From the NCBI GenBank assembly GCA_009103225.1, contig RHPI01000249.1, forward strand, positions 30,730 through 94,729: 64,000 bases of DNA. The letters run 5' to 3'. The DNA comes from Chlorokybus atmophyticus (Eukaryota; Plantae; Mesostigma and Chlorokybus algae). The notes under the pieces are model-generated. The model was not told the origin of the DNA. It made no database searches and saw nothing but the letters and a program-made list of their open reading frames with translations. The translations under genes and the position numbers were made by a program. Shown piece after piece: positions 14,961 to 37,354 of this stretch; within the stretch, counting starts at the first letter, position 1; each line of letters starts with the position of its first letter.

Positions 14961-14974
14961 GTGGGCCCATAACC
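14961..14974 (-). promoter_or_regulatory. Primer-binding site of copia-1, GGTTATGGGCCCAC (copia/Osser type, internal tRNA-iMet fragment primer)
   Basis: Immediately follows the LTR end ...TCAACA on the minus strand; matches the Drosophila copia-type PBS GGTTATGGGCCCA. Confidence 0.85.
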
Positions 14975-15833: not shown

Positions 15834-17620
15834 ATGACAGCGGTGGCCATGGAGATCACGGGCTGGAGTTCCTCCCCCCAGTTTCTCCCCCCACCCCTCC
15901 TCCCTCATCACCCCCCACCCCCCACCCCAATGGACATGTTCTCCGCTTCTCCACCCCCCCCTTCGCTGCCTGCTTGGTTGACGGAGGCCGAGGACATTCA
16001 TTGCCGTCACCCCCTGCGCACTGCTGCGGGCTTGAAAGCGCGTCAACAAGGACATCCAGCTTCACAACAGCTCGCAACTTACAAAGCTAAGTGTTTGTCG
16101 GACACTGCTGCTTCCCACGGGCTAGTTCGCACGCGCGGAGTAGATTAGTCATTTGCACGTGTTGCTATCTCTTTGGATGCTGTCTCACGTTGGCAATCTG
16201 CTCTCCTCTACGCTGCTCTGGTGTTTGCCTTTCCCTTCATCCCTGTGGAACCCCAGCATATTAGCGACGAGGTCAGCATGCGCTTTCACCATCTAGCGTG
16301 GCTGCAGTCTCTGTGTGTGGATGAGTCCGGCTCCACATCTTTCTCTTCACTCCATCTCCTCCCTGTCGGGGAAGATCACGCTATCTTTCACGCTAACACA
16401 ATATGCCGATCACATCTTCCGGCGTGCACAGTCTGGTACTCTCCCTCTCTGCGGTGGTCATGTCAATTGTGTGAGGCGTTGGTCCGACTCTTCTCCACCC
16501 CTATGGATCTCCTTCTCAGGCCTTCTTCCGGTTCTCCAGCCATTCATTAACCTCGCCATGCAGCCGCACCGTCAGGTCGGCATGCCTCTTCCTCCTTCAA
16601 GCGGCCCTGCCAGTCTTGCTGCTCCAGGCTCGGATACACGCTATTGCTTCACACTTACCCCTAACGTCCCCACCCCCAGCAAGATTGCCTTTGAACTTGA
16701 GGAGCACGGCAAGTTTTGCTCGGTGGTGGTGAACGTAATTACTACCCCTCCCCCTCAGCCGTGTGCTCAGTGCGGGCCCCTTGGCCACTCATTAGCCAGG
16801 TGCTCTGCTCGTGCCCGTCTTGCAGCCCGCTTGTGGAGTAATGCCCCCCCCCCCTCCGCGCTTTGCACCTTCAGGAGCTCCACCTCGCACAGGTGCTGGC
16901 GCCCCATCAGCTGCTTGTGCTCAGCTGACGGTTGTTAAACCAGCCCATGCGCCACCTCCACGCTTTTCTCGTCGTGCTGATGCTATCGCTGCTGATGATG
17001 CAGTTACGGCCCCAGCTGCAGCTGGGCAGCCTTTTGGCCATGTTTTTACAAGTCACGAACAGAATTTTATACAGGCCCCCCTCTTCGCCTTGCTGGCAAT
17101 ACTGCATTGGCACCAGCTGCAGCTTCTCGCGCAGGAGTTGGCACGTCTTCATCTGCTGGTTCTCAGCTGGCGGCGGCGCGAAAGTGAATCAGCCCGTTAA
17201 CTTTCTCTTCGCTCTAGCCAGGCTGATGCAGTCACTGCTGGAGGTGTGGCCTCAGTCGCAGAAGGGCAAGCTTCTGGACCCCTCCTTGTAGGACAGGGGG
17301 AGGTGTCCGTGACTCCTGCTCCCCGCCTTGCTCCCGACGCTGCGCTGACAGCCGATGCAGCCGCTTGAACCCAGAAGCATGAGTTGCAGCATGTCCACGC
17401 CTCGCTTCCCTCCCTCCTCCCATCCACCATGCTGAGGCCTCTGTCGCTGATAAGAGGGAAGCGGACTCCTCTTCTTGATTACATGTTGATCTCGCCAACC
17501 CGCGCAGCTGCTGAAGGAGCTAAGGCTGCTCGCACAGCAGTCATCGCGGCGCTGATGTCCACGCCATTTCCCTCGCCCTGCGCAAGAGATGAGCCAGGCC
17601 ACTCGCCTCTACACTTATCG
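15834..17620 (+). mobile_element. L1-type LINE ORF1 remnant (zinc knuckle), no ORF2
   Basis: Frameshifted ORFs; CAQCGPLGHSLARC is a CX2CX4HX4C knuckle, preceded by LTPNVPTPSKIAFE...VVVNV as in plant L1 ORF1; Pro/Ala-rich tail. Confidence 0.65.
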
Positions 17621-17622
17621 TC

Positions 17623-19420
17623 GGTAGAAATGCGTTTCGGTAGGTTTGGCCGGATCCCTAACTTTATAGATTAAGCGCAAGTTTCCCTAGGGATTCGCAA
17701 GATCCCTAATTAAGTTATAGCTAGATCCCTATATTAGTTAGTGCCTGTCACAAACAGCCATCACGGCCGTTCTATCTATCTAGATAACAACGAGTGAGGA
17801 CCGGGCGTTACAATTGTCAACAAATATGCTTATGATTCAGACCTGTACGGTTGTTTATGCAAATTGACTAATTTCATGGCGCCGTCGGGGACACAGTGGT
17901 TACATTACAATGCATTTTGGTTGGAAAGTTGGGTCGATACGAATCTTTGTCACGTGTTTGACTGGTTCCGTCAATAACGCATGGATCTAGCCATCATAAA
18001 GCTGTAACGTTGATCATTACACCGCAATAGTACACCTTTTAAGCATTTGCAGCCAGATTATTAATACATTGCCGGTTCAAGTACCCGCATGCCCGCGGCC
18101 TACCTTAACAATGTTGTTGATGATCACGCAACCACTCCATTAATAAAAACGCACCGGCGCGATTTGGTAGGTGACCAAGGGAGTTTATGGCAACAGCCTG
18201 CCATACAGTCAACGTCGTGGGTGGATGGATACTTGGCACGGCTAAGCCATGTTTGAGTCCCCAGGCCACCCGCAAGCGGACAACTTAATAAAAACCACCT
18301 ACCAATGCCTAGCTGTTCATCTAGGTGTCAATGTTGGTTTATGATGTCTAATTATGTATATGTATATATATACATGTATATGTATATATATACATGCATA
18401 TGTATACATAAACATAAAACATATCTTTTATCATATTGTTATGCATGTATTGTTAATTCTGAAAAGGATGCCACATTATGATGTAACTTTACAGTATATA
18501 AATATACATTACTTATATATAATTATATTTTAATACAACTACTAGTCGAAATATATAAACTTATATACATATGTATATACACCTGTCAATATTAGTTACC
18601 GATTGTGGGGTAGGCGTAGCCTAGTGCTGTTGTATGCAGGTGTTGGTACATGCATTGCGTACCGGTAACAAATGAATGCAATACACCTGGCATGAATGCG
18701 TTGCGGCACTTGAGACAATTGAGACAGCCGCTGTAAGATCATCAATGTTTTAGACGCGTTGCAGCGTGTCTCGTGTCGTCATGGTCTAGTCGGTCAGTCC
18801 AAAGGTCATAGGTGGTTACCTGTCAACATGGCAGGGTTGTCCGTACAGATTCGAATCTCGGCGATAGAGCTGCGAGCTCCCCTCAATTGCGGAATTGTTT
18901 TTGGTTTTTGCCACGAATTGCGGCCATAACATTTCTGGATCACGCAGTAATCCCCTTAATACATGATCTAACCAACTCTGGTTGGATCACACATCAAGAT
19001 TAATCCCCTTGCCGCAAACTGCGGCCATAACATTTCTGGTTTGATCACGCATTAATCCCCTTAATACATGATCTAACCAATAATTAGCATATGATGTGGT
19101 TGTTTTTTTGCCGCGAACTGTGGCCATAACATTGCTGGTTACATCACGCATTAAGATTAATCCCCTTAATACATGATCTCACCAAAAATTGGTATAGGAT
19201 GTGGCCATTATGTAGTTCAACAAAGGACGGATACCAAACTTGATTTACATCAAGTACTTTTTCTTAATGGCAGCTGGATACCAAACCAAGTTGTGGCTGC
19301 AGCAGGAAAAAGTGCAAAAATTGATATGATATGTTGTTTACACGTGGATCCATAATTAAGTTATAGCTAGATCTCCATTTAAGTTGTGGGCAAGGCTGAA
19401 CTGTTGGGGGGCCATTTACC
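17623..19420. mobile_element. Non-autonomous TIR-type element of the GGTAGAAATG family with internal tandem repeats
   Basis: Starts GGTAGAAATGCG and ends GGGGCCATTTACC; arms are homologous to 10668-10911 and 15399-15499; contains a TA-rich tract (18355-18600). Confidence 0.5.
18913..19215. repeat. Tandem ~100-bp repeats (TGCGGCCATAACATT...ATCACGC...AATCCCCTTAATACATGATCT), 3-4 copies
   Basis: Units start near 18913, 19017, 19115 and 19198. Confidence 0.85.
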
Positions 19421-19429
19421 GCTATATGC

Positions 19430-19800
19430 ATGGCACCGCAGTGCTGAACACCCCACCAGCTTCGCTGCTCTCTTCGTCGTCTCCTCCTCACTCACCTGAG
19501 CGTGCCGGCCGGAGTGAGTTTCAGGAGGTAGGACCAGAGCAGCTGCCTCCGTCAGCAGATGTGCCAGCTCCCCGCCCTTCCCTCCAGCCCCAATCTCCTG
19601 CTCGGGGGAAGGGGAAAAAGCCACTACTTCCGTATGGCCGGGCGCAGACTCAAGCACGCCAGCGCACGCTCTCCCCGTTCCTCTCGGCCTCCTTGTTAGC
19701 GGCATCCTCCACATCATGGTACGTGCTAACTGAAGAGGAGGAGGCCTAGCAAGATGCAGCTGCTAGGGCTCGTTCTCTCCACCCCGTGCATCCGTTGAGG
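19430..19800 (+). mobile_element. Possible second LINE ORF1-like tail fragment
   Basis: Ser/Pro-rich basic ORF (RGKGKKPLLPYGRAQ...) similar in style to 17300-17600; weak. Confidence 0.3.
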
Positions 19801-19864
19801 AGAGCACGGGCTTGCTCTCCCCCTCGACATCTCCTTCGCCTACAGCTGCGCAGACTGGAGCTTT

Positions 19865-22155
19865 GTCGAGTACCTTCTCATCCTTTAATGACGGCAGTGC
19901 CAAGTGCCAGCGGTGTGGTTTTGGTCTTTGCATTAACGAGCCCGCAGTTGGTGACAAGTGTTCTCACCATCTGCTCCTGAGTTATCTCGATTGTATGAGC
20001 CGCCCTATTGCGCTCAATCACCATACCAAGGAACCACTTGACCTCTCCAAGAGCACAAACTGAGAATGCTTGCCGCAAAGCAAGTTTCGTCTCCTGCATG
20101 TGGTGCACTTGCCTGGCGATGATGGTGATATCATCCACATACACGAGCAGCCAGACCTTGTTGTCTGCATGGATGAAGAGCCCAGGGTCTACTCAGGATG
20201 CCATGTAGCCAAGTGCATCAAGCTCCTTCGTGAGCTTGATGTGCCACATACATCGTGCCTGTCGCAATCCGTACCGCGCCTTGATCAGCTTAAACGCTGT
20301 GCCTCCCTCTTCATATCCAAGTGGTTGCTCAATAAAGATCTCCTCCTCCAGCTCTCCGTAGAGGAAAGCATTCATCACAACCGGGTGCACTTGGATCATC
20401 ACGTGATGCAGCTCTAGATCTACAGCAGCAACCACAGCTAGCAATGCACGGAAGCTTCCTTGGGGTGGTATGCTTACTTGCAGGTGCAAATACTTCGTTG
20501 AAGTCCACACCTTCATGCTGCAAGAAGCCCTTTGCCACCATTCTTGGCTTGTAGCGCTCAATGTTGCCTTGACCATCACGCTTCACTTTGAACCCAGTTT
20601 ACTAGAATGGTCTTCACTCCTTGCGGTATCTGCTCCAGCGACCAAGTGTTGTTGGCATGGAGTGACGCAATCTCCTTGTCCATACTATGCTAGTAGCACG
20701 CTGCCATTGCTTCGCATTTAGTGCTAACAATGCCTCCTTATAGGTCCTAGCCTAGTGCCAGACTGAGGCTCCTCATTGTGCACACTGGAGACTTGTGCCT
20801 TGTGTAGGTCTCCAGGTTCCTTTGTCTGTCTCACTAAATGTCTCCAGGCTGCGTGCACCTGCTGCAAGTGCGGCTCCTTATAATCTGCTACAGTTGAGTT
20901 CTGCTCACCCTTGTTGATGATGGCCTTGCTTGCAGCCTCCACTGTTTCAGGTGGCTTCTCCGGCTGTGTTTCATCTTCATCTTTGAAAAAGAAGCCTGCT
21001 TTTGGTTGTGATAAATTTTCGTGGAAAACCACTTCTCTGCTCAATGCTCGATGATCTGCTGAGAGTCCTCTAGCAAGATCCTGTAAGCCTTAGCACCCAG
21101 TTTATAGCTAACGAAGATGCCCTTCTTGCTGATCGGCTCCAACTTGTGCCTGAGGTGTTTAAGCACCAGTGCATATGTTGTGCATCCGAAAACACGCATA
21201 CCACTCACATCTGGTGTGGTTCCATAGAATTGCTCGCACTGAGTCTTTCGAGCTCATTGGAGACATAGTGTGGATGTAGTTGGCAGTGAGGACCGCCTCC
21301 TTCCACATACTGTCTTCCATCTTTGTGTCATTAAGCATGGCTCGAACCCGCTCCAGGAGTGTCCTGCTGAGCCGTTCAGCTGCTCCATTCTGCTGTGCAG
21401 TGTGTATGGTGCCGTCGATTCGTGGCGTATGCCCCTTCTCGCGAAGAACTCCTTCAACTCCTTGTTGATGTACTCCCCTCCTTGATCACTCGTGATTGCC
21501 TTCATCTTGTTGCCAGACACGCTCTCCAACAAGATCATGACTGTGCGCACGACTCCAACAACTTGTGACTTCAGCGTCAAAGGGAAACTGATGGGCAGCT
21601 TGCTGTGGTCGTCGAGGAATGTAGCAAGTACCAACCCCTCCCTTCGCCACAATGCGCATAGGGCCACAAACATCCATGTGCACAAGCTCACAAAGATGCT
21701 AGCTGCTAGAAGAGGAGGATGGAAATGGCAAAGCATGCTGCATTACAACGAGGCATAGTTCACAAAGTGCACCTAATGCATTCTTGAGTTCTTCTGTACT
21801 GAGATGGATGCTCTTGACCATCTTTTTGGCGACAAGGTGAGTAAGGTTAACGTAGCTCAGATGCCCGAACCTTTGATGCCACAATGTTGGCGACTCCTTG
21901 TCCTTCACCACCATGGCTTGGATGTCTCTGTTATAAGGCTGCTCTACAGGGTAGAGCCCTCCCGGATCAGCGAATTCAACCATGTGCACGACCCCATGAA
22001 TGATGAATGAGCAGCCCACCCTGCCGGAATACTATTTTTGATCCTAAGCGAGTAGCAATTCTCACAGAAAACAGACTCGCAATAGCCTTTGGAACATGCA
22101 GGATGTCTCATAACACATCTTTGTATGTTACCAACCTTGCACTGGAGCCGGATGT
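19865..22155 (-). mobile_element. Ty1/copia internal fragment (copia-2), a degenerate relative of copia-1
   Basis: Collinear with ~11640-13870: WHQRFGHLSYVNL, HMDVCGPM, QGGEYINKEL, YVDD, KTKTTPLALG; many frameshifts. Confidence 0.92.
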
Positions 22156-22159
22156 TGCC

Positions 22160-22545
22160 TGTTGAAATTCAGACAAGCTACTACACATGCATGGAGCTGG
22201 TGCAAACACTGATACACACACGCATGCTAAATAATGAGCATAAGCACGCACAACAAGCTTAGATTACCATGAGTTTACGAGCTTTTGTACCCCGCCAATC
22301 TCTACACACGTTTACTCTAGCAAGCACCATGTAAGCAAGTTTTGCCACATAGCTAGTTTTACACGCTTTTCAGCAAGCTATACCACGCGCCATAAGATTA
22401 ACTACACACGGAGTTCTTGCCATCCCTCTGGAGCTTTGGGCTGCGCCAGCCTGCGCCAGACTCAGCCGAGTCCGGAGTATTCGGGCTTGCTCACACTCCG
22501 CGTTGCACACTGTCCAGATATCGGCCACTGGACTCACAACTGCTT
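22160..22545. repeat. Possible copia-like LTR remnant
   Basis: Starts TGTTGAA at the point where copia-2 homology ends; composition resembles 14975-15398; right end not clean. Confidence 0.35.
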
Positions 22546-22649
22546 GATATTAGTCCTTATACCATAACCACTGGTACATTAAAGACTTAGCCATTTCACG
22601 CTGCCGGAACTTGTCCATAATATGCACTGTGCAACTATGCAAGCCAACT

Positions 22650-23335
22650 TTTAACACTCCCATGCGGGCAGCTTGGAATGCTTCACTTCACATTTTCAAT
22701 TCTTTGTCAAGGTAGTCACCATCTTCAACATGCTCCCCGCTCTTCTCATAAGCGCCTCCTTGAAGTTCAGCACCTGCAAATCTTTATAATAGCTCACATA
22801 ATCCTTCATCACTACCTCTCTGCTTGTGCTCCCACATGCACTGCTCCTCTGGCAACGTCCTGCACTCCTCTCCGCACCGCAACACCTCCACCATGCTTCT
22901 CCTCTTTCTCCTTGCTGACGCCACCAGCTCCGTCATCTCCCACGGGCTCCGGAACCTTATTTCCCCCCATCTTGTGGCCTTCAGCAGCAACCCTCACCTG
23001 AGCAACCGCTCCCTTCCCTGCCGTCTTTGCAGCTCCAGCTCTAACTTGTACTCCGGGCACCATGGCCTTTTTCTTCTTCTGTCTCGCAACCGGTGCTGAT
23101 TTAGTCACCTCCACATCTCCAGTTTTCTTGTGCAGCTCCGCACCCATGACCGCTTCCTTGATGTAGTAAAGTCCTCCATCGTTTATCCAAACAGCCAACC
23201 AGCCGTGTGACACCATCCAACACAACCTTGCCTATGTCCCCATTAGACACTGTCATAGCACCTGCTCTAGCCGCAATGCGCACAGAAAGCAGGCTAGCTT
23301 CTAGCCCCGGGACATACAACATCTCTCTTAATAGT
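22650..23335 (-). mobile_element. Internally deleted copia fragment (copia-3)
   Basis: LYVPGLEASLLSVR...GLYYIK (PR to pre-integrase linker); TTAACACTCCCATGCGGGCAGC at ~22650 matches the PPT/LTR junction of copia-1 at 10921. Confidence 0.65.
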
Positions 23336-23339
23336 CACC

Positions 23340-24150
23340 AATGGAAATGGGTTTTTGCAAGTCAGGCTGGATCCGCAACTTGTTCATGATTGAATGCAAA
23401 GTTTGTTAAGGATCCGCAAGATCCCTAATAAATTTATGGCTACATCCCTTATCCGGTTCATGCCTGTCACAAAAGCGCTTTTTCGTCGACACTTCCTTGC
23501 AAATAGATCCATAATTAAATTGTGGCTATGTTTTGAACAAATTGCCATCAACCTCTATTGATGCTCTATACGAAATAAATCCTTAATAAAGTTGTGACCT
23601 CCTCCAGCTTTTGTGCCCCATGACCAAAGGCCCTAACAAGATTGTGACTTGAACTTGGTAATACACTTGAGTTGCAGTCACAATATACTCTTGGTTAACT
23701 CCGCAACAGTGATCCCACAACACGGTTTCGTCGTAATCCCTAAGTCGGGACCAGCTCCAGTCTAATTTTACGAGCTGGCAAAGGGTCCAATGAAGTTGTG
23801 GCCCCATGCAAAACGAAATTAACGCTAAAGGCATAAACTGTTACTTGCTTTTTTATTACTTGCTCCAGCTTCAAATGTTATGACCGCATTCATAACTTTG
23901 TTCAGCGCTACACCCAGTGTCTTTGTGTGTTTCTTGCTGAGTCCCAGATCTTATGACCGCATCCACAACTGTGTCCAGCCTTACACCTAGTGTCGTTGTG
24001 TTTTTTTTTTTGTTTTTCTGCTAAGTCCCAAATGTTATGGCTACTTCCACAACTTGTTAAATTGTCACCCAGTGCTGTTGTGTGAATTGGTCTAAGTCTC
24101 AGATGTTATAGCTGCAGCACCAAGTTGATTGCTGCTACACCCACATGGAA
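23340..24150. mobile_element. Third member of the TIR-type family (left arm plus subterminal repeats)
   Basis: 23342-23580 is closely similar to 10670-10910; followed by ~72-83 bp tandem units starting (G/C)TTATG(A/G)CCGCA-like, the reverse complement of the 18913 unit core. Confidence 0.6.
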
Positions 24151-24613: not shown

Positions 24614-25129
24614 TACATGATATAAATATTAAAACCGCATTGCGCACCAACGAGTAGGTGTTTACTGGATGGTTGGCCACAATACTTGGTCCGTGCTGTC
24701 AATCATTCTGCGGTCTCATAAAAAGCTATAAAAATAAGCGATGTCATTTATGTATACTTTTTAACGTATGCTTTTTATGCATAATTTTAAATATATATAA
24801 GAGGTATACGTTTTTTTGAATATGTACACGAAGTATACATAAAGAAATTTACTTTTTTTATGCATACTCCTTATACATGAATTTAAATATGTATAATTAT
24901 ACATACACAAGTATTGAAGTATTATATAAGAAGTAAAAGTAATACTTAGGTGTCAACGCATAGAACATGTTAATGGTGCATGGTCACAGATTTTTGCAAA
25001 GCCCCTTACAGCTTGATTGACAGCCGGCCGCCGATTTGCGGCTGTCCACGGTGTATAGCCAGACAGTCGGTGCGGCTTGTCAGTTAACACGTTAAGTGCA
25101 CTTGTGCAATCAGGCATTTAGGCAATCTA

Positions 25130-25440
25130 TTGCACCGGTCACTAGTCCGTGCCGCACCGTACATGGTGTGGCACGGACTGTGCGGCACCGTGTACGGTGC
25201 GCGCTAGTAGGGCCACAGGACCGCGGGACCGCACCTGGTCCGTCCATGGATGGTGCGGCACGGACCATGCGTGGTGCGCGTCGCCGCGCCAGCCATTCAC
25301 GGGCCGCGGGCCCCGAGCGGACCAGGAACGATCCGTCCCCCGTGGACCAGGCAGTCCTGGCCCGCAGGATACGGTCCATGCGTGGTCCGTGGGGTCCGTA
25401 AAAGGACCATGCATGGTCCTTCAACGTCAAGCCGTGTGAA
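25130..25440. repeat. GC-rich palindrome-dense element, possibly a MITE or Helitron end
   Basis: 15-bp stem AGTCCGTGCCGCACC/GGTGTGGCACGGACT (1 mismatch); hairpin GCACCGT-GT-ACGGTGC followed by CTAG-T; many GGACC/GGTCC motifs. Confidence 0.5.
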
Positions 25441-25460
25441 TGGTATGCCGGAGTGATCTA

Positions 25461-25632
25461 CAGTCTAACCTCGATAAGTGCATACCATCGGGAACACCTC
25501 TTTCTATGCACTTATCGCGGATATGCACTTACGCTGCTTTATACTACCAGTAGAGTGCATTGGTGTCGGGCAAAACCATGCACTTATCGAGGATATGCAC
25601 TTATCAAATATGCACTTATCGAGGTTAGACTG
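25461..25632. mobile_element. Tc1/mariner-superfamily (pogo-like) MITE, 172 bp
   Basis: Perfect 24-bp TIR CAGTCTAACCTCGATAAGTGCATA; TA TSD at 25459-25460 and 25633-25634; internal repeats of TATGCACTTATC. Confidence 0.93.
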
Positions 25633-25854
25633 TACAACTACAACGCCAGCAACAGTAAGACAATACCTCTTGTTGCATGCTGATAGTGCAGCATGCAAAC
25701 CAACGCGTCGCGCTGACCAACATCTCTTGATGCAGCACGACACAGCATGCGCTCTCATGATGGTGACCTGCAACATATGCACACAGACAAATACAACATT
25801 GTGGTTTGTGTAACATGCATCGGCGGCGATGTATGCATGCGCATTGGTGGTTGA

Positions 25855-26589
25855 AGATTACCCACTCATAAGCTCATAAGCCTTGGATTGCTAGACCTCT
25901 GTTGTGGAGGCGGGGGGGCCAGCATGGGGCTACACCGCGCTGGCCTTGATGTTACAGGAGTTGACATCTAAAACCAACCAGAGTACCCATTCCCATTCAC
26001 TTTGGGCGATGCACTTACAGTCGACGTGGCTGACTACGACGTGGTATGGGCCAGCCCACCATGCTAGGCCTTTGTGCGCTGCATACCTGAGAGCCAACGC
26101 GAAGCGCACGTGCATAAATGGAACCACATCATGCTGCTACATGACTTGAAACAACGGCTCCAAGCATCAGAGAAGGCGTACATCATGGAGAACATCCTCA
26201 GTGCAGCTCAGCACATGCGGAGCGACGTCGTGCTGTGCAGCACGACGTTCGGGGTACCTACGTTCCGACACAGAGTCTTCGAGACTGTGCCCCTATTGCA
26301 GGACGAGATGGTATGCGATCATGCCAACAAGAGTCTCGGCCAGGTGTCTGAGCACCCTACACACAACTTCACCTCGCAACAGGCAATACAACACCAAATG
26401 TACCCAGTTCATGGTCAAGCTGCCTCGCGTAGAACACTTGTAGGTTGGCAAGCAGCATTGGGCATTCATTAGATACAATCAGGTTGCACTATAGTTGAGT
26501 GCATTCCACCTGCATATTCAGAGTACCTAGGTTGACAGCTGCTGCATGCCTTCGGCTACACAGTCATCAACAATCCTCTGTCATGGTAA
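25855..26589 (+). pseudogene. Intronless prokaryote/phage-type C5 cytosine DNA methyltransferase pseudogene
   Basis: One frame: [42 protein letters not shown]...[11 protein letters not shown]...AYIMENI...VLCSTTFG..TFRHRVFET...AALGIH*...ECIPPAYSEYLG*QLL. Motifs I, IV (SPPC), VI (EN), VIII (RHR) and X are present. Four stops: 25969, 26065, 26470, 26533. Confidence 0.85.
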
Positions 26590-26690
26590 TAGTATGATAG
26601 TGCGATGGTTGCAATCATGCTGTGCATGCAGAACGCTGTGGAGTTGCTGCATGTCGGGCTGATGGTTGTATGCTGTAGATGCTGCAGTTC
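26573..26690 (+). pseudogene. Degenerate PHD finger (BRPF/JADE/ATX-like PHD1) abutting the MTase
   Basis: With two 1-nt shifts it reads CHGNSMIV-CDGCNHAVHAERCGVAACRADG-WLYAVD, versus the consensus MLxCDGCNVAVHQxCYGVxxIPEGDWLCxxC; first CxxC not intact. Confidence 0.55.
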
Positions 26691-28038
26691 AATGTATGCA
26701 ACCCACTCGTGTACACGCCCTCAGGTGCACGCAGTGCCTTGTGTCACACACACGCCTTACACCCCCNCCAGGATGCTGAAGCCCACCCACCCTTATGCAC
26801 GATTGCAAGCATCGCCCCTAACTGTCACACATGCAACGAAAATCACAGTGCAGTTAACATACCACAGACAACAACTCACGCAGTGACTGCATCTGAACAC
26901 ACAGTCAACCTGTGACACGCAATTCAAAGATTTTCGATGATTCAGTCTCGTGCAAGTTGTGCACACATTGCATTACTCGTCTGGTAAGACTGTACACATG
27001 CCTAGCACTAGCATCTGCAACTTGCAATGTCAAAATTAACACAGAACTTAACTATACGAAGACAAACACTGCTATTGCCACATACAAGGCTATACAAGGC
27101 TGATAGCATATACGCACTACTAGCACTGCCAACTCTGCAAGTGTGTGCAAGCGGGTGCAGTTAAACTAGCGAAACCACACCAATGAGGTCCACTAGACTA
27201 CATGCCTACCCCAATACTTACCACAAGACAGCCAGGCTGTCAGCTGCCACCTCAGACCAACTAACAACTGTGCAAGAGGGTGCAAGGCAACAGGAGATCA
27301 GTCAACAGGCAAGCCCACACCCGCCAGCATCATTCAAGGGGACGTAGCATTACCTGAACCCTTTCTGTAACAGCACCACCGTCGCCGGTGATGCCCCTTC
27401 AATCCTCTACCCCAACACCCACACCGCCTATGACAAGCCTTTTAACGGCGTGGCCGCCACTGAGCTGAGAACTGAAAGTCCCCACATCAGATTAATGTGA
27501 CCTTTTATATCAAGAGTATATCAGCTATATACCTCTCGATAATTAACTCACAACTAGACATCGACCCTACAGATAGGGTAGTTAGGAAATCTAGCGTGAG
27601 CCAACCACAGCTTAGATAAGGTACCTATCGATAAGGTACCTATCCAAAGATACCTATCGTAAGGTACCTAACGAGATAGTGATCCCAATATATCAAATGT
27701 GACATTAAATAGGCTTGAATAAGCGGTTCTACACCCATTGGGACTTATTTAAGCTATGATAAAGCATCATAGCCTTTAATAAGCGAGGAACCGTAGAAAA
27801 GAGGTACAGTTAAGCATATTTAAATACTTATTCATACAAAATGTGTTATTCAAGTAGCAATAATACCCCTATTATTAGTGCTCCCGTAACATTCCCCCCC
27901 ACTTAGGTTTTCAACGTTCTCGTTGAACTCAAGTTGATCAGGCTTGATTGCGAGTAATTGTAACCAGAGAGATAGCAGGAAATGACAGGGTGGTAATGAA
28001 ATTGCACTGCCAGTCTGTCATAAAACCAAGCCCACAGT

Positions 28039-28473
28039 TTATGGGACATGACATGAATCCCAATAAGCTCGAAGCAACTCGTGGCAGTGCGTAAGATGCC
28101 TGTCGGGCTCCCAACTGTTATGTTCCGGGCCATACCCTTTCCATTTCACCAAATAGCGAGTTGCGCGTCCTCGACTATTTAGTTTATGGTTCAATATAGC
28201 TTCCACCTCGTATTCGAGCTCGCTGTCCACCTCAACTGGCGGTGGTGGAGGCTGTGTTCTACCGTCTGAGCGGTAAGGTTTCAACAAGTCTACATGGAAC
28301 ATGTTGTGTATACGCACACTTGGGGGCAATTGCAGTCGATAAGCGTGCGTACCAACTCTATCAGTGATAGAGAATGGACCTAACCATCGGGGCAGCAACT
28401 TGCGAGCGCCCGTACCTTTGATGGTTATTCTTGCGTTAAGCAAAACTTTATCGCCGACATCGAAAGTGGCCAT
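28039..28473 (-). CDS. Integrase GPY/F motif plus chromodomain (frameshifted from pol)
   Basis: KLLPRWLGPF; FHVDLLKPY; YEVEAILNHK...YLVKWKGYGPEHNSWEP. Confidence 0.93.
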   Translation of the reverse strand: MATFDVGDKVLLNARITIKGTGARKLLPRWLGPFSITDRVGTHAYRLQLPPSVRIHNMFHVDLLKPYRSDGRTQPPPPPVEVDSELEYEVEAILNHKLNSRGRATRYLVKWKGYGPEHNSWEPDRHLTHCHELLRAYWDSCHVP

Positions 28474-28476
28474 TTT

Positions 28477-31161
28477 TCAATGTGTATCAGCATAAGCTTT
28501 TTGCCTGTCCTGTGCTTCTGACAGACACAGCTTGGCTCGAGCCAAATTTTCTTGCATATCAGTGGCAAATTCCTTTACCGCTGGTACAGTCAGAGCATTG
28601 CGAGGTACACGCAATGACGCTGGTGTGTTCGGGCGAATCCCATAATTCAAGAAAAATGGGGTTTCCTTTACACTTTCCTGCCAAGCGTTGTTCACAGCGA
28701 ACTCTGCCATTGGCAAGTACCTATCCCAATCAGCATGATTAGGAGCCACATAGTGGGGAAGCATTTCTTCCAGTATTTGATTTGCTCGCTCAGTTTGACC
28801 GTCCGTTTGCGGGTGGAAAGCAGTCGGCATGCTTTGTTTTACCCCCAACAATTCACAGACTTCTCGCCAAAACTTGGAGACAAACCGAGGATCACGATCT
28901 GTGACAAGTTCACGCGAAAGACCGTGGACGCGAAAGACCGTGGACACAAATAAGTGTGCCAAGTCCCGTGCACTTACAGTTGTGCAACACGGGGCAAAAT
29001 GCACCAGTTTAGTCAAACGGTCGACAAAAACCACAATAGCAGTGTATTTAGCGGCTGTTTCATGTAGGTCAGTAATCAAATCCATACTGACACTATCCCA
29101 CTTTTGTTCTGGAATTGCCAATGGTTTAAGCAATCCCGCTTGTTTTTGTCGTAGTGGCTTATTACGTTGACACACGTCACATGTGCAAACATATTGATCC
29201 ACGTCAGCTGACATTGACGGCCACCAGTATAACTGTTGCGCAGATTTGAGTGTTTTGTGTTTCCCCAAATGCCCAGCATACGGCGGGTCATGCACTGAAT
29301 GCGACTTGCGTAAGCATTGCTTACGCAAGTCGCCCGAGTTGGGAATTGCCAACTGCTCCCCTTTATACCACAGATTGCTAACAGCAGTAAGCTGTTGCAA
29401 GTTGGTTTGACTGCTAAACCAATCATCTGAGTTATAACCTGTGGACACTTCCTTTAAGAAAGGATCTTCAGGCTGTTGTACATTACGCGTAGTTCCAGAG
29501 CGCGTAAGTGCCAAAAGAGCAGGGCTGCGACTTAGTGGATCCGCCACATTGGTGCGACCCGGCCGGTATTGCCAAGTGAAAAAGAAACGAGAAAGGACTT
29601 CATTCCACCTAGCTTGCCGCCTCGACAGATCTTGTTGCGTATGAAAGAATGTGAGCGGGTTGTGATTAATAATCACCAAAAACTCCACCCCTTCCAAGTA
29701 GCAACGCCATGTGCGCAGCGCGTGCACCACCCCGAGCAATTCCTGCTCAGTGGTTGTGTAATTACGTTCAGCAGGAATGAACTTTCTGCTTTCATATGCA
29801 CATGGTCTGTCATCTTGTAGAAGGACTGCCCCACACCCAATGGTGGAAGCATCGCTGATCACCACAAAAGGCTTGGTGTGGTCGGGGAAGGCTAACACAG
29901 GGGCTTGTGTTAATGCATCTTTAATGCGTGTAAAAGCAACCTCGTGTGCCTCCGTCCACACAAATTTAACATCTTTTCTTAGTAAAGATGTTAAAGGATT
30001 TGCCATGCCAGAATATGCTCGCATGAACTTGCGAAAATAATTGGCTAGCCCCAAGAAAGCACGTAACTGATGTACATCCTTGGGTGGTGGCCAATCCTTT
30101 ACCGCACACACCTTTTGAGGATCTGGTTTCAATCCTTCTTTGTGAATCACATGCCCTAACAAGGGTAGTTCATCCTTTGCAAAGTTGCATTTGGACAGGT
30201 TGGCATAGAATTTGTGTTCGCGTAACTTAGCTAGAGCCAATTCCACATGCCTGTGGTGGTCCTCCCGAGTTTTGCTGAACACAATGATGTCGTCTAGATA
30301 TACCAGTACAAACTTGTACAATTCATCAGCAAATACCGCGTTCATTGCTGTCTGAAATGTAGCCGGTGCATTTATTAACCCAAATGGTAACACTTTATAC
30401 TCAAAGTGTCCTCGTGGGGTGCGAAATGCAGTTTTTGGAATATCCGACGGGTGGATTTTGATTTGATGATAACCACTGGTCAAATCCAGCGTGCTGAACA
30501 CTGTTGCACCTGACAGCTTATCAAACAAATCATCAATCCGAGGCAAAGGGTATCTGTTTTTCACAGTTACCTTGTTCAATGCACGGTAATCAATACACAT
30601 GCGTAGCTTGCCATTCTTTTTGGGCACAAACAAAATTGGTGCACCAAAAGGAGATATGCTCTTTGTTATTAAACCTTTGTCCAATAACTCTTTGAGCTGT
30701 TTTTCCATTTCCGCGTGTTGAAAGGGACTTAGCCTATAGATAGGCCGCCAAGGTGGCTTTGCCCCCTCTTCCAACGGAATGGTATGATGTATGTTTCTAT
30801 CAGGAGGCAACTCCGGGAGTTCATCTTGAACTACATCTGCATATTGTTCCGTAAGTGATTGCACCACAGGGTCAGCTACGGCCTGTTCAACAGGTGTTTC
30901 TACCTGTTGTAAGTGCATCAAATATACTTCCTCACGTTTGCGCACGCAACATTTTAGTTGCATAGCAGAGAGGAGCGGAACATTGTCGCGAGCAACACGT
31001 GCGAGTACAGGTGCGATTAACGTCACCACGTTTACCCTTACGAAAGGTGCACGTATCTGCTCGAGAGTCCAATTGCAAACCTGCTTCGGTGTGCCACTGC
31101 TCACCCAAAAACAACATCCACCCCGGGGATACTTATATCCACCACGATGAAAGTTGGTCAA
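28477..31161 (-). CDS. Chromovirus pol: RT, RNase H, integrase
   Basis: RMCIDYRALN, LPFGLINAP, YLDDIIVFS, SDASTIGCGAVL, ELLGVVHAL, HLGKHKT..CDVCQ, VSMDLI, TDRDPRF, QTDGQTER. Confidence 0.97.
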   Translation of the reverse strand: MTNFHRGGYKYPRGGCCFWVSSGTPKQVCNWTLEQIRAPFVRVNVVTLIAPVLARVARDNVPLLSAMQLKCCVRKREEVYLMHLQQVETPVEQAVADPVVQSLTEQYADVVQDELPELPPDRNIHHTIPLEEGAKPPWRPIYRLSPFQHAEMEKQLKELLDKGLITKSISPFGAPILFVPKKNGKLRMCIDYRALNKVTVKNRYPLPRIDDLFDKLSGATVFSTLDLTSGYHQIKIHPSDIPKTAFRTPRGHFEYKVLPFGLINAPATFQTAMNAVFADELYKFVLVYLDDIIVFSKTREDHHRHVELALAKLREHKFYANLSKCNFAKDELPLLGHVIHKEGLKPDPQKVCAVKDWPPPKDVHQLRAFLGLANYFRKFMRAYSGMANPLTSLLRKDVKFVWTEAHEVAFTRIKDALTQAPVLAFPDHTKPFVVISDASTIGCGAVLLQDDRPCAYESRKFIPAERNYTTTEQELLGVVHALRTWRCYLEGVEFLVIINHNPLTFFHTQQDLSRRQARWNEVLSRFFFTWQYRPGRTNVADPLSRSPALLALTRSGTTRNVQQPEDPFLKEVSTGYNSDDWFSSQTNLQQLTAVSNLWYKGEQLAIPNSGDLRKQCLRKSHSVHDPPYAGHLGKHKTLKSAQQLYWWPSMSADVDQYVCTCDVCQRNKPLRQKQAGLLKPLAIPEQKWDSVSMDLITDLHETAAKYTAIVVFVDRLTKLVHFAPCCTTVSARDLAHLFVSTVFRVHGLSRELVTDRDPRFVSKFWREVCELLGVKQSMPTAFHPQTDGQTERANQILEEMLPHYVAPNHADWDRYLPMAEFAVNNAWQESVKETPFFLNYGIRPNTPASLRVPRNALTVPAVKEFATDMQENLARAKLCLSEAQDRQKAYADTH

Positions 31162-31772
31162 GTCTTGTGGCTATTAATAAAAAAACGCTCCTTCACCTCC
31201 CCAATTGCATTAAGGGTGGAACCAGCAGCACGTACATACGACGTGACTGGTGTGAAAGGTATGTTATTACGTTTCACCCAAGCATGTTCAACAAAGTTAT
31301 GGTTTGCACCAGTATCAATTAATGCTGTATATGGTGTACCCATAAGTTGACTCTCAAATCTCCATTTGAGTGGCACTGAGTGACCATCAAATGTAGCTAA
31401 TGTCGGAGTGCCGTGATTGGTAGCAGACTTGATAAAGATCACTTGCAACGGTGAAGATCCTGTATCTTTGCGTGAGAGTTGCATGATTACTTCTCCCCCT
31501 TTCAACAATTGCGACCACGGGCCATGATACCGAGGGATAAATACACATGCAATGACAACATGTTGTAATTGCAACTCGTGTAAGTGCTTAACAGCAGTTA
31601 CTAATTTAGAGAATGGAACATTGATTAAAACACAACCGTTTGCATTTGTCAACACAGGTGGTGTGCTCATATCAGTCCATACATCTGATACATCACAAAG
31701 AGAGGAAACTTTATCAAGAAGTACAGAGCTTTTAAAGTCATTCTGCTCGACTAAGCTACCAACCATGGACAA
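31158..31772 (-). CDS. Dam/N6-adenine-MTase-like remnant followed by aspartic protease
   Basis: VLINVPFSKLVTAVKHL...ACVFIPRYHGPWSQLLKG resembles the NPPF...P.W...W module of phage Dam-like and DIRS 'MT' domains; then ALIDTGANHNF. Confidence 0.55.
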   Translation of the reverse strand: MSMVGSLVEQNDFKSSVLLDKVSSLCDVSDVWTDMSTPPVLTNANGCVLINVPFSKLVTAVKHLHELQLQHVVIACVFIPRYHGPWSQLLKGGEVIMQLSRKDTGSSPLQVIFIKSATNHGTPTLATFDGHSVPLKWRFESQLMGTPYTALIDTGANHNFVEHAWVKRNNIPFTPVTSYVRAAGSTLNAIGEVKERFFINSHKT

Positions 31773-31775
31773 TTC

Positions 31776-32936
31776 CTATTTCTTGTCTCTCTGCTGCTTG
31801 GCCTTCTGTGCATTCTGTTTTGCATAGCACTTAGCCTCCCCATGACCTGTCTTCTTGCAGAAACTGCAAGTGATGATGGATTTGGCCGCGTTGTAGGGGC
31901 TAGCAGGATGAGATGTTTTCGCCTTTTTCACAAAAGGTTTGTTGTCAGTGGCCGGGCGCTTTGCAGCTGAAACCGGGGCTGCCTCTTTTGCCGTTGTTTG
32001 CATGTTTGCGTGAGAGCGCTTTACACTGTCCACAGCAGCAACCATCTACATCAGCATTGGTAAATCCGTCGAGGCCCACTCTTGCAAACTCGCGGGGTTG
32101 ACGGCCACATGCTGCACGAGATCTGTGTACAAGCCATGCCTGAACATATCCAGCTGATCAGCATCACTGATAGGTAGTTTGCCAGCATTGATCTTGCTGA
32201 CAAAAGATTGAAAATCCTGGATATACTGCTGAACCGGACGCCCGTTCTGACGCAGGTTGTGCAGCTGGTTGCGAGCAACCTGGGCAGGATCTGCACCACC
32301 ATAGCGCTGCTCCATGAAAGAGCACAACTGATTTACTTCCCGCCCGAGGTTTGTATCCCGTTGCTTACGGCGGTACCATTCTGCCAGAGCATTGTTTGGG
32401 ATTAGCAACTCAGCTACACGCAATTTCCCCTCCTCAAAAATGTGAAGGGAGTTGACATAGTGTCGCAACTTCACAAGCCGGTCGAAGATGGCCGCTTGCT
32501 TGTTAGGAATAAACTCGGCAGGACGAGCAAGAGCTTGAACAGGTGGACCATTATCAGCACGTTGAAGACGCTCGATCATGTTCAGAACCCGTTTGCCTTC
32601 ACCCATCTGCCCCTCCCAATCTCGCCCCATAAAGGTGGTGAGCTTTGAAACTTTTTCTGCCAAAAGGAAGAGAAAGTTCACGAGTGACACAATTGCCTCA
32701 CGAGGGTCATGATCATAGGTGCTAAGGAAATGCTCCATCAAGTCCTGCTGTGTCATGCGAATAGAAAACTCAGGAAATATAGAAGGTGATCTACCATCCA
32801 CTGAAGTTTCCGCAGCTTTGGCAGCTTGAGACTCATCAGGTGCATCATCCGGATTCAGAATATCTTCCATCGATGGAAATTCCTCCTCATGGGAAGGTTG
32901 CTCTTTTTCCGAGCTCTCCCCTTTTGAGGTGGGCAC
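31776..32936 (-). CDS. Chromovirus gag with one internal TAG (32048-32046) and a CCHC knuckle
   Basis: ARNQLHNLRQNGRPVQQYIQDF (retrotransposon gag), then CSFCKKTGHGEAKC. Confidence 0.85.
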
Positions 32937-33159
32937 CGAGTGTTCTTCCCATTGTCTGCAAAACAGGCAGAATGGGATGGTGAGAACCTCACCAATGAAC
33001 CAAGTTCAACGAGAGGATCATAATGACCCCAAGTTGTAAAAGTCCCAAACAGAGTCCAAACTAGTCTCAAAATAAGAAAGGTTGGATCTTGAGTGTCACC
33101 AAACAGAACAAGTCTGAGCGGGACCATAATGTCCTAACCCTGTGTTGTCCTCAACCAAG

Positions 33160-33660
33160 TCCCAATTTCCAGGCCGAAGCTAGAGGGGGAGGGTTTCAAA
33201 CTAACAGGGTTTGGGAACAGATTGTCCTAGAACCTCCCCACAACTGTCCTAACCAAGTCCCGATCTCCAGGCCGAAGCCAGAGGGGAAGGGTTTGGGAAC
33301 AGTTTGGTTTGGAACTTACGGACCCGGATCAAGCGACCCGGCAAAGCCATTGGTAGGTCACGGGTACGTCACAGGCATGCAACAGGCAAGCCACAAGCAT
33401 GCAACAGGCAAGCCGTACGGTGACTAAGTGTGACATGCACTGGCAAGCATAATGACAAGCAATCACCGCATGCAATGACAAGCAATCACTGCAAGCAATG
33501 ATAGTGCACTAAGTGTGACAAACAGTGATGGCACACTAGCAAGCCGCAATCACCGCATGCAATAACAAGCAATCACTGCAAGCAATGATAGTGCACTGGC
33601 ACGTCACTGTGTGATGTGCATGAAAGTACACACGTGCACCTGGTAAGCACCTGGCAAGCA
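33160..33660. repeat. Direct and tandem repeats in the chromovirus 5' leader
   Basis: Duplicated AACCAAGTCCC..CCAGGCCGAAGC.AGAGGGG..GGGTTT unit; repeated GACAAGCAATCAC(C/T)GCA units. Confidence 0.8.
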
Positions 33661-35034
33661 GCTGACAAGCAGGCAAGTCACCGACGTGTGTGATGGTATC
33701 TCACACGTGGAGAGGCCGCCTCTTTAATAGGTGGCTTCAGCTTGGAGGTAGCGCAGGGAAGCAAACTTGAAGCTTGGGCTGCGTGGACGTATAGGAGGCC
33801 GACGCCTTCCGATTGGCCGAAAGCGGGTCGCTGCCCCCTATAAGTGCCCACGTCACCCCCCAGCTCCTGGATACCAATGTAACAGCACCACCGTCGCCGG
33901 TGATGCCCCTTCAATCCTCTACCCCAACACCCACACCGCCTATGACAAGCCTTTCAACGGCGTGGCCGCCACTGAGCAGAGAACTGAAAGTCCCCACATC
34001 AGATTGATGTGACCTTTTATATTAAGAGTATATCAACTATATACCTCTCGATAATTAACTCACAACTAGACATCGACCCTACAGATAGGGTAGTTAGGAA
34101 ATCTAGCGTGAGCCAATCACAGCTCAGATAAGGTACCTATCGATAAGGTACCTATCCAAAGATACCTATCGTAAGGTACCTAACGAGATAGTGATCCCAA
34201 TATATCAAATGTGACATTAAATAGTCTTAAATAAGCGGTTCTACACCCATTGGGACTTATTTAAGCTATGATAAAGCATCATAGCCTTTAATAAGCGAGG
34301 AACCGTAAAAAAGAGGTATAGTTAAGCATAATTATATACTTATTCATACAAGATGTGTTATTTAGGTAGCAATAATACCCCTATTATTATTGCTCCCGTT
34401 ACACTTTCCCTCACGATACTACAACCTATCCCCTTACAGCCGCCGCCGCCACCGCCCATGCCGCCCAGGCCACCACCACCCTCGCCGCCCCAACACTCAC
34501 ATCCTTAATTCGCGCCAAGTATACACACCGCTAACCCTAAGTTTAAACGACGCCGTTTGTCGCGCCGAAGCGCGCAGACATTGCGAGTTCACTTGCGCCG
34601 CTACGCGCGGACTTTCAAAGAACCGCACCGACATTACAAGAACTAGAACCGGTCGGGTCGACGCGGAACATCTATCGGGAAGATATTCAGTGACTCACGC
34701 CATTGCTTTGCGCGACAAAACGAGAACCACTCGGACTCGACAGGCCACAAACCTCGTAGACTCGTTGCGGACTCAACACGACACACTGGGATCCACCTCG
34801 TCCAAATGCGCGCAGGACTTGCAAGATGGGTAGCTCGGAAAACCCCTCCGGGCGGTTCAACTGAAGATGACGAAACTTCGTTTCGACTATCACACACACA
34901 CACACACACCCCAAGCACATCTTGACGTTATTTGTGCGCGGGCGTGCGCGCTTACTACACGCCTTGCCTACTTTGCATCATGCCGTCCCCCTCAGGGCTG
35001 CGTTCCGTCTACAGTAGCTTGTGTATGCTAGCAC

Positions 35035-35689
35035 TGCTTTCTTGATGGTCTGTACCGTACGCTCGGCGAGGCCGTCGGCTTGAGGGTGATCACGCGAGGT
35101 ACGGCGGTGGTCGATGTAACATTTGTCCAAGAGGGTGTCGAATTTCACTCTGAACTCAGTACCTTGGTCAGTGATGACCTTGGCGCAACTGCCAAATCGG
35201 CTGAGAACGTGAGAGAGGAAGGCTTGAGACACCCCCCTGCTGCTCTTGTCGGGTAATGGCACCAGCTCCACCCATTTGGAGAAGTGCTCGATCATGACCA
35301 GGATGTAACGGTTGCCACGCGCTGAGGGTGCCACGTCCCCCAAGATGTCGAGTCCCCATCGGTAAAAGAGGCCGGAGATAAGGAGTGGGTGCAAGGTGGG
35401 CGCTACGCGTGTTGAGGCTGGCGCGCACCATGTCACACTGCTGGCAGTGGCTGATGAACCTTTGCACCTGTTTTGTTAATCCATACCAATATTGTGCCCT
35501 CACTAGGCTGACCGTACGCTTGACACCGAAGTGTCCAAGCTCAGTGTGGAGGGAAGTGATGATGCCCTCGCGCGTGACTGGTGTCGGCACTTCCTTGTCT
35601 TCGTCGTGGAAGCGGCGATACAGCTTGTCACCTGCCCATCGATAGTGACGGGTGCGTTGGGTGACCCGGTCCTTCTCTCGAGCGCTCAT
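35035..35689 (-). CDS. Integrase N-terminus and core (frameshifted), truncated
   Basis: HTELGHFGVKRT..CQQC; WGLDILG; ITDQGTEF; HPQADGLAERTVQTIKKA. Confidence 0.92.
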
Positions 35690-35710
35690 GCCGGAGGGAA
35701 GATGGCCACT

Positions 35711-37354
35711 TTAAAGAAAGAAGAGTGACGGCTTGTCATGCCATATGTCCTGCCTGGTGTCGGGGGGCGCCAGCTCTGTGTCATCAACGTCAATGTCGGC
35801 TGTGTGGGCGTCTTCCAAGGGTGTGGTTGCCGCAGGGTCGGTAGCCTCAAGGGCAGGAATCGCCTCTACCGCTGCTGAGGCCGTGGTGTTGGTCTTGCGC
35901 CCCGAGCGCAACGCGGCAGCAGCAAACATGGCTGCCATGGTGGGGGCTGTTGCTGCAGGGATGAGCTCATGCCGCGCTCCAGTTGCGTCGTTGGTGCTGA
36001 GGTGAGGGTTGCGACTGAGGCCATCGGCATCTTGGTTGGTGAGGCCAGCGCGGTGGTCAATCTCGAAGTCGTATTCCTGTAACAGCAGGGCCCATCGAGC
36101 AAGTTTCTCTGTCAGATGTTGGTTGGTCATCAGCCACTTGAGGGGCTGATGATCGGTGATCAGTTGAAACTGTCGACCAAAGAGGAAAGGTCGGAAGAAG
36201 GAGATGGCCCACACTGCAGCGAGGCACTCCCCTTCGTAGCTGCTGTAGTTGGCCTCGGCGCTGTTGTTGCTTCGGCTGGCGTATGACACCACCCGCTTCT
36301 TCTTGTTCTCATCGTGCTGCGCCAGCACCGCTCCCATCCCCAGCTTGCTCCAGTTGGTGTGAAGGATGAAAGGCTTGGCGTAGTTCGGACGTTGAAGGAT
36401 GGGAGCGCTGGTGAGTCTGCTCTTCAGCTCCTCGAAGGCCTGCTGTTGCGGCTCCTTCCACGCGAACTCCACCTCCTTCTTCAGTAGCTCGTTGAGGGGC
36501 CTTGCGATCTTCGCGAAGTCCTTCACGAACCGGCGATAGTAGTTGGCAAGTCCGAAGAAAGCGCGCAGGCGTGTGAGGTCTGTCGGGGCAGGGATAGCTG
36601 CCAGAGCCTCTACTTTGGCCTGCTGCACATACACACAATGGGGCACAATCACGTGCCCTAAGCACAGCACCTTGTGGGTGAAGAAGGTACACTTGTCGGG
36701 GTGTACGGTCATCCCCACTCCCTTGTTTTGTTCCAGCACCGCTTCGATGTGCTGAAGATGCTCCTCGTTGCTGCGGCTGAAGATGAGGATGTCATCGATG
36801 TAGCACCGCGCGCAGTCCAGCCCCTTAAAGGCTTTGTCCATGACGCGTTGAAACTTGGCGGGGGCATTCTTCAGCCCGAACGGCATTACCTTCCATTGGT
36901 ACAACTGTCGGTTGCCCCAGAAGGAGGTCTTGTGCTTGTCCTCGTCCTTGATGGCAATTTGGTTGTACCCCTGACGCATGTCCAGGATGCTGAAGACTGT
37001 GCAGTCTCCCACATCATCAAAAATACCCTCTGCTGTGGGCATGGGGTACCGGTCTTGCTTGGTCTTGTTGTTGAGGGGGCGATAGTCGCCACACATGTGT
37101 CGCTCTGTCCAGTTGCCTGCTGAATCCTTCTTCAGTGGCATGACGGTTGCTGCTGCGAAGTCCGATGTGGACTCTTCGATAAGGCCTGCATCCAGCAGCG
37201 CCTTACATCTCTGTTCCACCAAGTCTTCTTCCAACTTGGAGAGCCTATATTGTCGTCGGAACACCGGCTCAGTGTCCACCAGCTCGATGTCCATCTGGTA
37301 CACTGAGCATGTACCCAATTCCCCTTCACATTGAAGCTGAATTGGCTCCTCCAT
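35711..37354 (-). CDS. Reverse transcriptase and RNase H
   Basis: RHMCGDYRPLN-like, MPFGLKNAP, CYIDDILIFS, ILHTNWSKLGMGAVL (first RNase H Asp appears as Asn), ECLAAVWA, TDHQPL. Confidence 0.97.
   Translation of the reverse strand: MEEPIQLQCEGELGTCSVYQMDIELVDTEPVFRRQYRLSKLEEDLVEQRCKALLDAGLIEESTSDFAAATVMPLKKDSAGNWTERHMCGDYRPLNNKTKQDRYPMPTAEGIFDDVGDCTVFSILDMRQGYNQIAIKDEDKHKTSFWGNRQLYQWKVMPFGLKNAPAKFQRVMDKAFKGLDCARCYIDDILIFSRSNEEHLQHIEAVLEQNKGVGMTVHPDKCTFFTHKVLCLGHVIVPHCVYVQQAKVEALAAIPAPTDLTRLRAFFGLANYYRRFVKDFAKIARPLNELLKKEVEFAWKEPQQQAFEELKSRLTSAPILQRPNYAKPFILHTNWSKLGMGAVLAQHDENKKKRVVSYASRSNNSAEANYSSYEGECLAAVWAISFFRPFLFGRQFQLITDHQPLKWLMTNQHLTEKLARWALLLQEYDFEIDHRAGLTNQDADGLSRNPHLSTNDATGARHELIPAATAPTMAAMFAAAALRSGRKTNTTASAAVEAIPALEATDPAATTPLEDAHTADIDVDDTELAPPDTRQDIWHDKPSLFFL

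Follow-up and report, generated by a model that had tools for sequence, protein, structure and literature searches.

A decayed phage-type cytosine methyltransferase beside a probable PZP relic in Chlorokybus atmophyticus, and its relatives with an inserted MBD

A locus in the alga Chlorokybus atmophyticus raises the question of whether a DNA methyltransferase (MTase) of phage type was once joined to a eukaryotic histone reader in a single protein. We analyzed it within a 64,000-nt stretch of contig RHPI01000249.1 (hereafter, the window), in which the original prediction had placed a PHD finger directly downstream of the MTase. The DNA of the window is eukaryotic and rich in repeats, among them Copia and Gypsy elements. 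A pair of related Copia elements, which agree at about 80% across 2.3 kb, occupies positions 10664-23580 together with three LTR-like repeats, and a host TFIIB gene with introns lies at 56850-58500 on the + strand (PF00382, E 1.3e-13). Closer to the locus, a GC-rich multi-copy repeat with internal inverted motifs (25000-25440) stands directly to the left of a MITE-like insertion (25459..25634, no strand assigned) that has terminal inverted repeats and many loose-ended contigs.

The MTase itself was confirmed as phage-type. A C5 cytosine MTase pseudogene occupies 25879..26589 on the + strand, with motifs I, IV (PC), VI (ENV), VIII (RxR) and X in this order in a single frame that includes motif I (25891) and motif X (26503) and is closed by TAA TAG (26587..26592, +), at the most frequent of the short stop positions in the clade described below. 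The region matches phrog_363 with an E value of 1.1e-18; its Pfam score, 15.9, lies under the cut-off of 22. Reading the MTase as 25831-26592 with stops shown as X, we found four internal stops (25969, 26065, 26470 and 26533), one more upstream (25852) and no frameshift; with four internal stops, the ORF could not make an enzyme. Two motifs deviate, with Phe replaced by Cys in motif I and Val by Ile in motif VI, and 73 of 109 clade-conserved columns are retained, the other 36 being altered. Contigs with zero differences, from two read runs, span 25664-25871 and 25969-26153 of the MTase and may derive from the assembly's own sample; runs X1 and X2 are contig-free over 26215-27123.

Of 878 candidates, a homology search retained 677 proteins. 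The window MTase is approximately 35-45% identical to many phage-type proteins of 200-230 aa, and its top three matches (E 3.6e-55 to 4.6e-47), all longer than the phage type, belong to a distinct clade. Profile searches enlarged the set to 18 rows of the clade itself and 23 of a sister group, and a quick tree of 86 rows, with 44 short phage-type proteins as the outgroup, placed the window copy among the 18 clade rows with support of 87, at an open fork and on a long branch (1.31), and joined the clade to its sister group with support of 96. The window copy also shares the C-terminal extension that follows motif X in the clade. Judged by its sequence, the window enzyme is a member of a clade of phage-type C5 MTases that carry an MBD in the target-recognition region.

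The insert that defines these relatives, which are small single-chain proteins of 270-390 aa, sits between motifs VIII and IX, in the variable region. Among the 17 scanned clade proteins that span it, 10 pass the Pfam MBD cut-off, two fall just below and five have no match; three more clade proteins are truncated before the insert. The clade profile matches chains of Arabidopsis MBD6 and animal MBD2. For scans of the window and of other loci, an MBD profile was built from 12 clade rows, one of them (P0012) mis-cut; Arg, Asp-x-Tyr and Arg, which we take to be the methyl-CpG contacts, all occur in the 11 correctly cut rows. The structural model of one member (P0005, pLDDT 64) matches MBD2/MBD5 and DNMT catalytic domains, with weak similarity to the catalytic domains of DNMT3 and DNMT1 (E ~1e-4, TM ~0.3). 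The window copy has only 23 aa in the variable region (26332..26400, +) compared to 61-130 aa in 14 clade members and thus lacks the MBD; six-frame searches with the 12-row MBD profile gave no match in the window copy with filters off, and the conserved N-terminal extension of the clade was not detected in it either.

The clade ranges over Klebsormidium nitens (GAQ92615.1), one chlorophyte genome and metagenomes. The chlorophyte gene is labelled Chrzof1 UNPLg00428, a label that presumably denotes Chromochloris zofingiensis, and the GAQ92615.1 gene model consists of two partial MTase-MBD units running into a HIT-like ORF. Clade members sit on contigs of 13-29 kb beside such an ORF. The HIT-like proteins P0381, P0382, P0384 and P0385, each of 145 aa, share contigs with Klebsormidium-type MTase-MBD genes and have no Pfam, PHROG or IMG/VR match. 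In the 23-row sister group (rows P0135, P0137, P0140, P0141, P0145, P0148, P0150, P0190, P0304-P0324 and P0361), the same place is taken by an insert of another kind, about 100 aa long and with no Pfam match, which by eye could be a diverged MBD-like fold; the records of this group are marine, and one contig reaches 245 kb. Separately, P0128, P0131, P0134 and P0142 contain two short C5 MTase domains in tandem or permuted, P0128 representing 19 members.

A phage-type C5 MTase with an inserted MBD or a fused PHD did not turn up in a literature search whose coverage left out most subscription papers and bioRxiv supplements. For the terms searched, both architectures were likewise absent from the accessible portions of PMC11244446, PMC9998398 and bioRxiv 10.64898/2026.10.09.758095. 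As a novelty, the family with the inserted MBD stands on firmer ground than the PHD fusion. Surveys by Iyer and Aravind reportedly include numerous eukaryotic DNA methylases fused to readers, so an earlier mention of such MTases is possible.

Downstream of the MTase, on the same strand, lies what reads as a remnant of a first PHD finger (PHD1; 26588..26685, +), identified by motif statistics. It begins with NSMI at 26588, in a frame other than that of the MTase, and continues after a +1 shift with CDGC..H..CGV from 26601; beyond a further +1 shift, CCRC at 26671-26683 provides the final Cys pair and fits better than the WLYAV continuation originally proposed. The remnant thus offers ligands 3-8 over two frames, one of them replaced by Arg next to Cys, rather than the eight ligands of a C4HC3 set in one frame. 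At each of three Markov orders, none of 3000 simulations produced the pattern CDxC-x4-H-x2/3-C-G, none of 10,000 dinucleotide shuffles produced the core with a later CxxC, and the strict pattern is found once on its strand in the 64 kb, although these patterns, like those used for the zinc knuckle below, are consensus motifs applied post hoc with frame changes allowed. Pfam and PDB scans of single frames and one-shift reads gave no PHD match, on pieces of 25-59 aa from which the filters drop weak matches. Homologue alignments of the MTase reach 26577-26586, so the first Cys pair of the finger does not lie at the MTase/NSMI junction; an uncertain candidate for this missing pair (ligands 1-2), CxxC-x2-GD in the MTase frame, lies 780 nt upstream at 25807..25830 (+). 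Given that the ambiguous base 26767 is near the frameshifts, those in this part may be assembly errors.

A second element extends the finger. At 27124..27215 (+), a probable remnant of a PZP zinc knuckle comprises CxxC, five residues, GAxK, and then His and Cys (motif at 27127-27205); it contains a single stop and is broken by a +1 shift near 27185. Its strict pattern arose in 0 and its loose pattern in 4 of 20,000 shuffles, and it occurs once in the window on both strands; the knuckle reads matched nothing in Pfam or PDB. A predicted GT-AG intron of 399 nt (26725..27123, +; donor 26725, acceptor 27123), in phase 0 at both ends, would leave a linker of about 15 residues to the knuckle. The intron pairs one of three phase-0 donors with the sole phase-0 acceptor in the ranges listed, a pairing that is not rare by chance, and is compatible with a PHD-knuckle join. 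Two other arrangements were rejected: an intron joining the MTase to the PHD, for which there is one in-frame GT-AG pair, 38 nt long with a weak donor, and an MTase wholly inside an intron, on splice phase read by eye.

The order of the two remnants agrees with that of the PZP (PHD-knuckle-PHD) module, which the accessible part of PMC4705663 gives as C4HC5HC5HC2H. As in the PZP of BRPF/JADE proteins described there, PHD1 is followed by the knuckle, and six PHD1 and four knuckle ligands are recognizable, but in the remnant the first Cys pair is displaced or lost, PHD2 is unrecognizable, the frames are broken and no profile matches. The two Cys clusters previously suggested as a possible remainder of the module, CHTC (26823) and CKLCTHC (26951), do exist but bear no knuckle or PHD2 signature and probably lie inside the predicted intron. 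CxxC is nonetheless enriched downstream, with five occurrences against a mean of 1.27 (p 0.011). No signature motif of a second PHD (C4HC2H) was found in 26690-27365 or in the right flank. The predicted PZP module gains a probable knuckle, at the edge of and beyond the 26540..27150 interval in which it had been proposed, and keeps its first finger, without a recognizable PHD2. Because the PHD and knuckle remnants both beat shuffles, we consider it highly probable that the PZP relic is real.

The alternative, that the Cys/His motifs arose by chance in decayed DNA rich in TG and CA and that the MTase pseudogene alone is real, draws on the lack of a Pfam or PDB match for any PHD or knuckle read, on the downstream TpG/CpA content (o/e 1.73), which favors Cys codons, and on the way the patterns were chosen. 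It has to accommodate, however, two motifs in the right order on the same strand, at frequencies beyond composition-matched shuffles (0/10,000 and 0/20,000), each strict pattern being found only once on that strand in 64 kb, and we regard it as improbable.

If the PZP relic is real, it remains to be asked how it came to adjoin the MTase. On balance, we judge, with limited confidence, that the two were probably separate genes, both now dead, and never one protein: a dead copy of the C5 MTase would abut or interrupt a separate PZP gene, the two having presumably been brought together by insertion or deletion and then decayed, in part perhaps through C-to-T deamination. All 15 full-length close homologues end 28-37 residues after motif X, free of any PHD; the window stop falls 28 aa after motif X, exactly as in five of the 15. 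The half-PHD pattern is present in 0 of 386 other proteins of the homologue set, no PHD Pfam label appears among the 120 matches listed (79-681 aa), and the two matches among 603 longer candidates lack a PHD as well, although the last count is weak evidence. The frameshifts also differ, with three in the 230 nt of the PZP remnant and none in the 708 nt of the MTase (p ~0.015), and this confinement to the PZP remnant suggests different histories of the two parts. The junction, moreover, leaves no space for the first Cys pair of the PHD. Stop density is nonetheless alike in both (four in 236 codons of the MTase and one in about 75 of the PZP), and single C>T or G>A steps account for only 10 of the 36 altered conserved columns, which we counted against the separate-genes reading. 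The MTase-PHD fusion was thus not borne out, and the behavior of intact homologues speaks largely against it, with neither a single ORF nor a fused homologue found.

An ancestral fusion, in which the MBD was swapped for a PZP reader and the MTase was joined to PHD1 or set into its first loop, is in our estimate the less probable reading. A spliced mRNA would then have encoded a CxxC-MTase-PHD-knuckle protein that methylated cytosine at nucleosomes with unmodified H3 tails, before the gene decayed. No spacer separates the two parts: the PHD similarity starts on the stop codons themselves, which would be rare for a random breakpoint, and both parts lie on the same strand, where a single extra shift at the last codon joins the frames and also explains the Trp at a position that holds Tyr in 13 of the 15 homologues. 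The upstream in-frame CxxC-x2-GD is absent from homologues (0/36), and the fitted pattern appears in only 43 of 20,000 shuffles, but any in-frame CxxC is common in them (7094/20,000, and 2854/20,000 for the last open stretch), and without the upstream CxxC, PHD1 is short of two of its eight ligands. The MBD is missing in frame, together with the N-terminal extension of the clade; the phase-0 intron candidate provides the linker to the knuckle; the MTase family already accepts a reader domain; and there is a precedent in N4CMT with its chromodomain, according to the part of PMC8885841 available. The shifts, moreover, cluster near the ambiguous base, in a part that X1 and X2 contigs do not cover. 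Against this stand the 15 unfused homologues, the window stop at the position found in five of them, the shifts confined to the PZP part and the lack of a recognized PHD2. Somewhat more doubtful still, in our estimate, is the broader proposition that a family of phage-derived C5 MTases in green-algal and giant-virus-linked DNA has interchangeable readers, mostly an MBD but in this lineage a PZP, with the entire MTase set in the first loop of PHD1 as a spliced enzyme guided by histone H3, and the gene since decayed.

The surroundings bear on the further suggestion that the MTase traveled as cargo. A chromovirus (Ty3/Gypsy) lies on the - strand at 27366..34403, with LTRs of 526 nt at 27366-27891 and 33878-34403 that are identical at 508 of 526 positions, a Chromo domain and the target duplication CTTTC; these features confirm the predicted insertion, and because of the duplication, the flanks at 27365 and 34404 must once have been contiguous. 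The right flank (34404..34970, no strand assigned) is CpG-rich (o/e 1.39) and holds no recognizable coding remnant. From 34409 to 34970, the same o/e of 1.39 compares with 0.46-0.64 around the MTase; this CpG-rich island contains a tract resembling proline-coding sequence and, near 34533, a heptamer similar to telomeric repeats, and it may be the end of an element or a promoter.

The rejoined segments, 25630-27365 and 34404-34970, might represent a mobile element of unidentified type carrying the MTase and the PZP, such as what is left of a compact viral cassette in which genes lay side by side. In addition to the former contiguity of the flanks, this reading can point to an ATG one base after the double stop, as in compact genomes, to a contig about 83% alike that spans 34685-34863, and to the 13-29 kb contigs on which clade members accompany the HIT-like ORF. 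Yet the segments show no termini, terminal repeats, transposase or second copy in the window, neither flank has a Pfam match, no HIT remnant is present in the window, and contig depth, a weak measure, is 1-5 on the covered parts, whereas within these runs the LTR reaches ~85-190 and the LTRs overall are about 100-fold deeper. We therefore consider such an element very improbable. The MTase locus looks low-copy, contig depth being a hint rather than a copy number.

Farther to the right, a Gypsy element on the - strand (34978-43471), 8 kb from the MTase, carries a DNMT3-like domain at 37532-39190, between protease and RT (PF00145, E 4.6e-12; top PDB matches DNMT3C/3A). Its integrase is truncated near 35030, and many related contigs occur in runs X1 and X2. 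The element resembles KnitGypsy-Dnmt3 and the K. nitens elements reported in the available part of PMC5890265. Diverged repeats (69-74%) at 7327-7979 and 43635-44091 are shared with its 5' flank, and an integrase C-terminal remnant lies nearby at 8850-9440, which suggests a second, decayed Gypsy-DNMT3 copy. Such Gypsy-DNMT3 elements, EpiLTRs (bioRxiv 10.64898/2026.05.21.726589) and CopiaMBD (PMC6673714) are all cases, as far as the accessible text of these sources goes, of mobile DNA capturing writers or readers of methylation; the retroelement DNMTs in them are DNMT3- or DNMT4-like and reside within pol, whereas the window MTase is phage-type and lies outside retroelement ORFs, and the accessible text on CopiaMBD mentions no DNMT. 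Transposons and giant viruses both capture readers, according to the part of bioRxiv 10.1101/2021.11.30.470311 available.

Viral and prokaryotic matches bear on how the MTase reached an algal nucleus. Among viral structures, the methylase of Pithovirus LCPAC201 matches best (E 6e-13; 48% over 147 columns), and an MBD protein from a prasinovirus is matched as well. In prokaryote genomes, the 18 loci recovered are all of the short phage type, so that the clade is not represented among them, and the IMG/VR loci examined likewise yielded no clade member; the 12-row MBD profile had 0 matches in 18,760 ORFs of 216 loci; a metagenome search for clade members returned three matches, all by chance and in bacterial-looking contigs; when P0300 was searched in the Atlas, all clusters returned were of short MTases from bacteria and phages; and among the matches listed, none placed the contig context of a clade member in a viral contig. 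Around the window MTase, the 134 flanking ORFs scanned include no viral hallmark gene and, in Pfam, nothing beyond a Copia gag and weak unrelated matches, its neighbors being retrotransposons and the host TFIIB gene. K. nitens carries NCLDV inserts, according to the part of PMC5294986 available. From the Pithovirus match, the lack of clade matches in the prokaryote genomes and IMG/VR loci searched, and these inserts, a giant-virus route is likely: indirect evidence from sequence comparison suggests that the phage-type C5 MTase would have entered the algal nucleus with giant-virus-like DNA.

Several known systems resemble parts of this picture. The short phage C5 MTases of phrog_363 belong to the same catalytic family, but the phage members have neither the MBD insert nor the C-terminal extension. 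N4CMT of bdelloid rotifers (PMC8885841, as far as its accessible text shows) likewise combines a prokaryote-derived DNA MTase with a eukaryotic chromatin reader in a eukaryotic genome; it is, however, a functional amino-MTase that produces 4mC and bears a chromodomain, whereas the window family is C5-type and has its MBD within the catalytic domain, and the copy in the window is a dead gene. The family is not a member of N4CMT, being C5-type with another reader. The orphan virus-derived DNMTs described in the available portions of PMC12344493 and PMC11244446 are, like the window copy, foreign, apparently non-functional and related to a Pithovirus enzyme, and the PMC12344493 supplement credits K. 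nitens with six orphan DNMTs. Unlike the MBD clade, the orphan DNMTs of PMC12344493 are generally without companion domains, and the term 'MBD' is absent from its main text as available.

A putative read-write loop that would spread 5mC can be proposed for the intact relatives: their MBD would recognize methylated CpG, and cytosines close by would be methylated by the catalytic domain. As a broad idea, a chromatin-guided foreign MTase holds for the family, with the difference that the reader domain seen is an MBD and not a PHD. A reader of 5mCpG at the place where bacterial enzymes have sequence-recognition loops would amount to a minimal read-write methylation unit. The PZP fusion, if true, would be a case in which one foreign writer exchanged its DNA reader for a histone reader. 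It would also mean that the design of reading histones and writing on DNA, known in the rotifer N4CMT from the published text available, can be reached by a second route. The window copy is a relic, and the intact relatives are of greater importance: the family is relevant to the ways in which giant viruses, or their endogenised copies, deal with 5mC silencing by the host, and to the recovery of DNMTs by algae from foreign sources.
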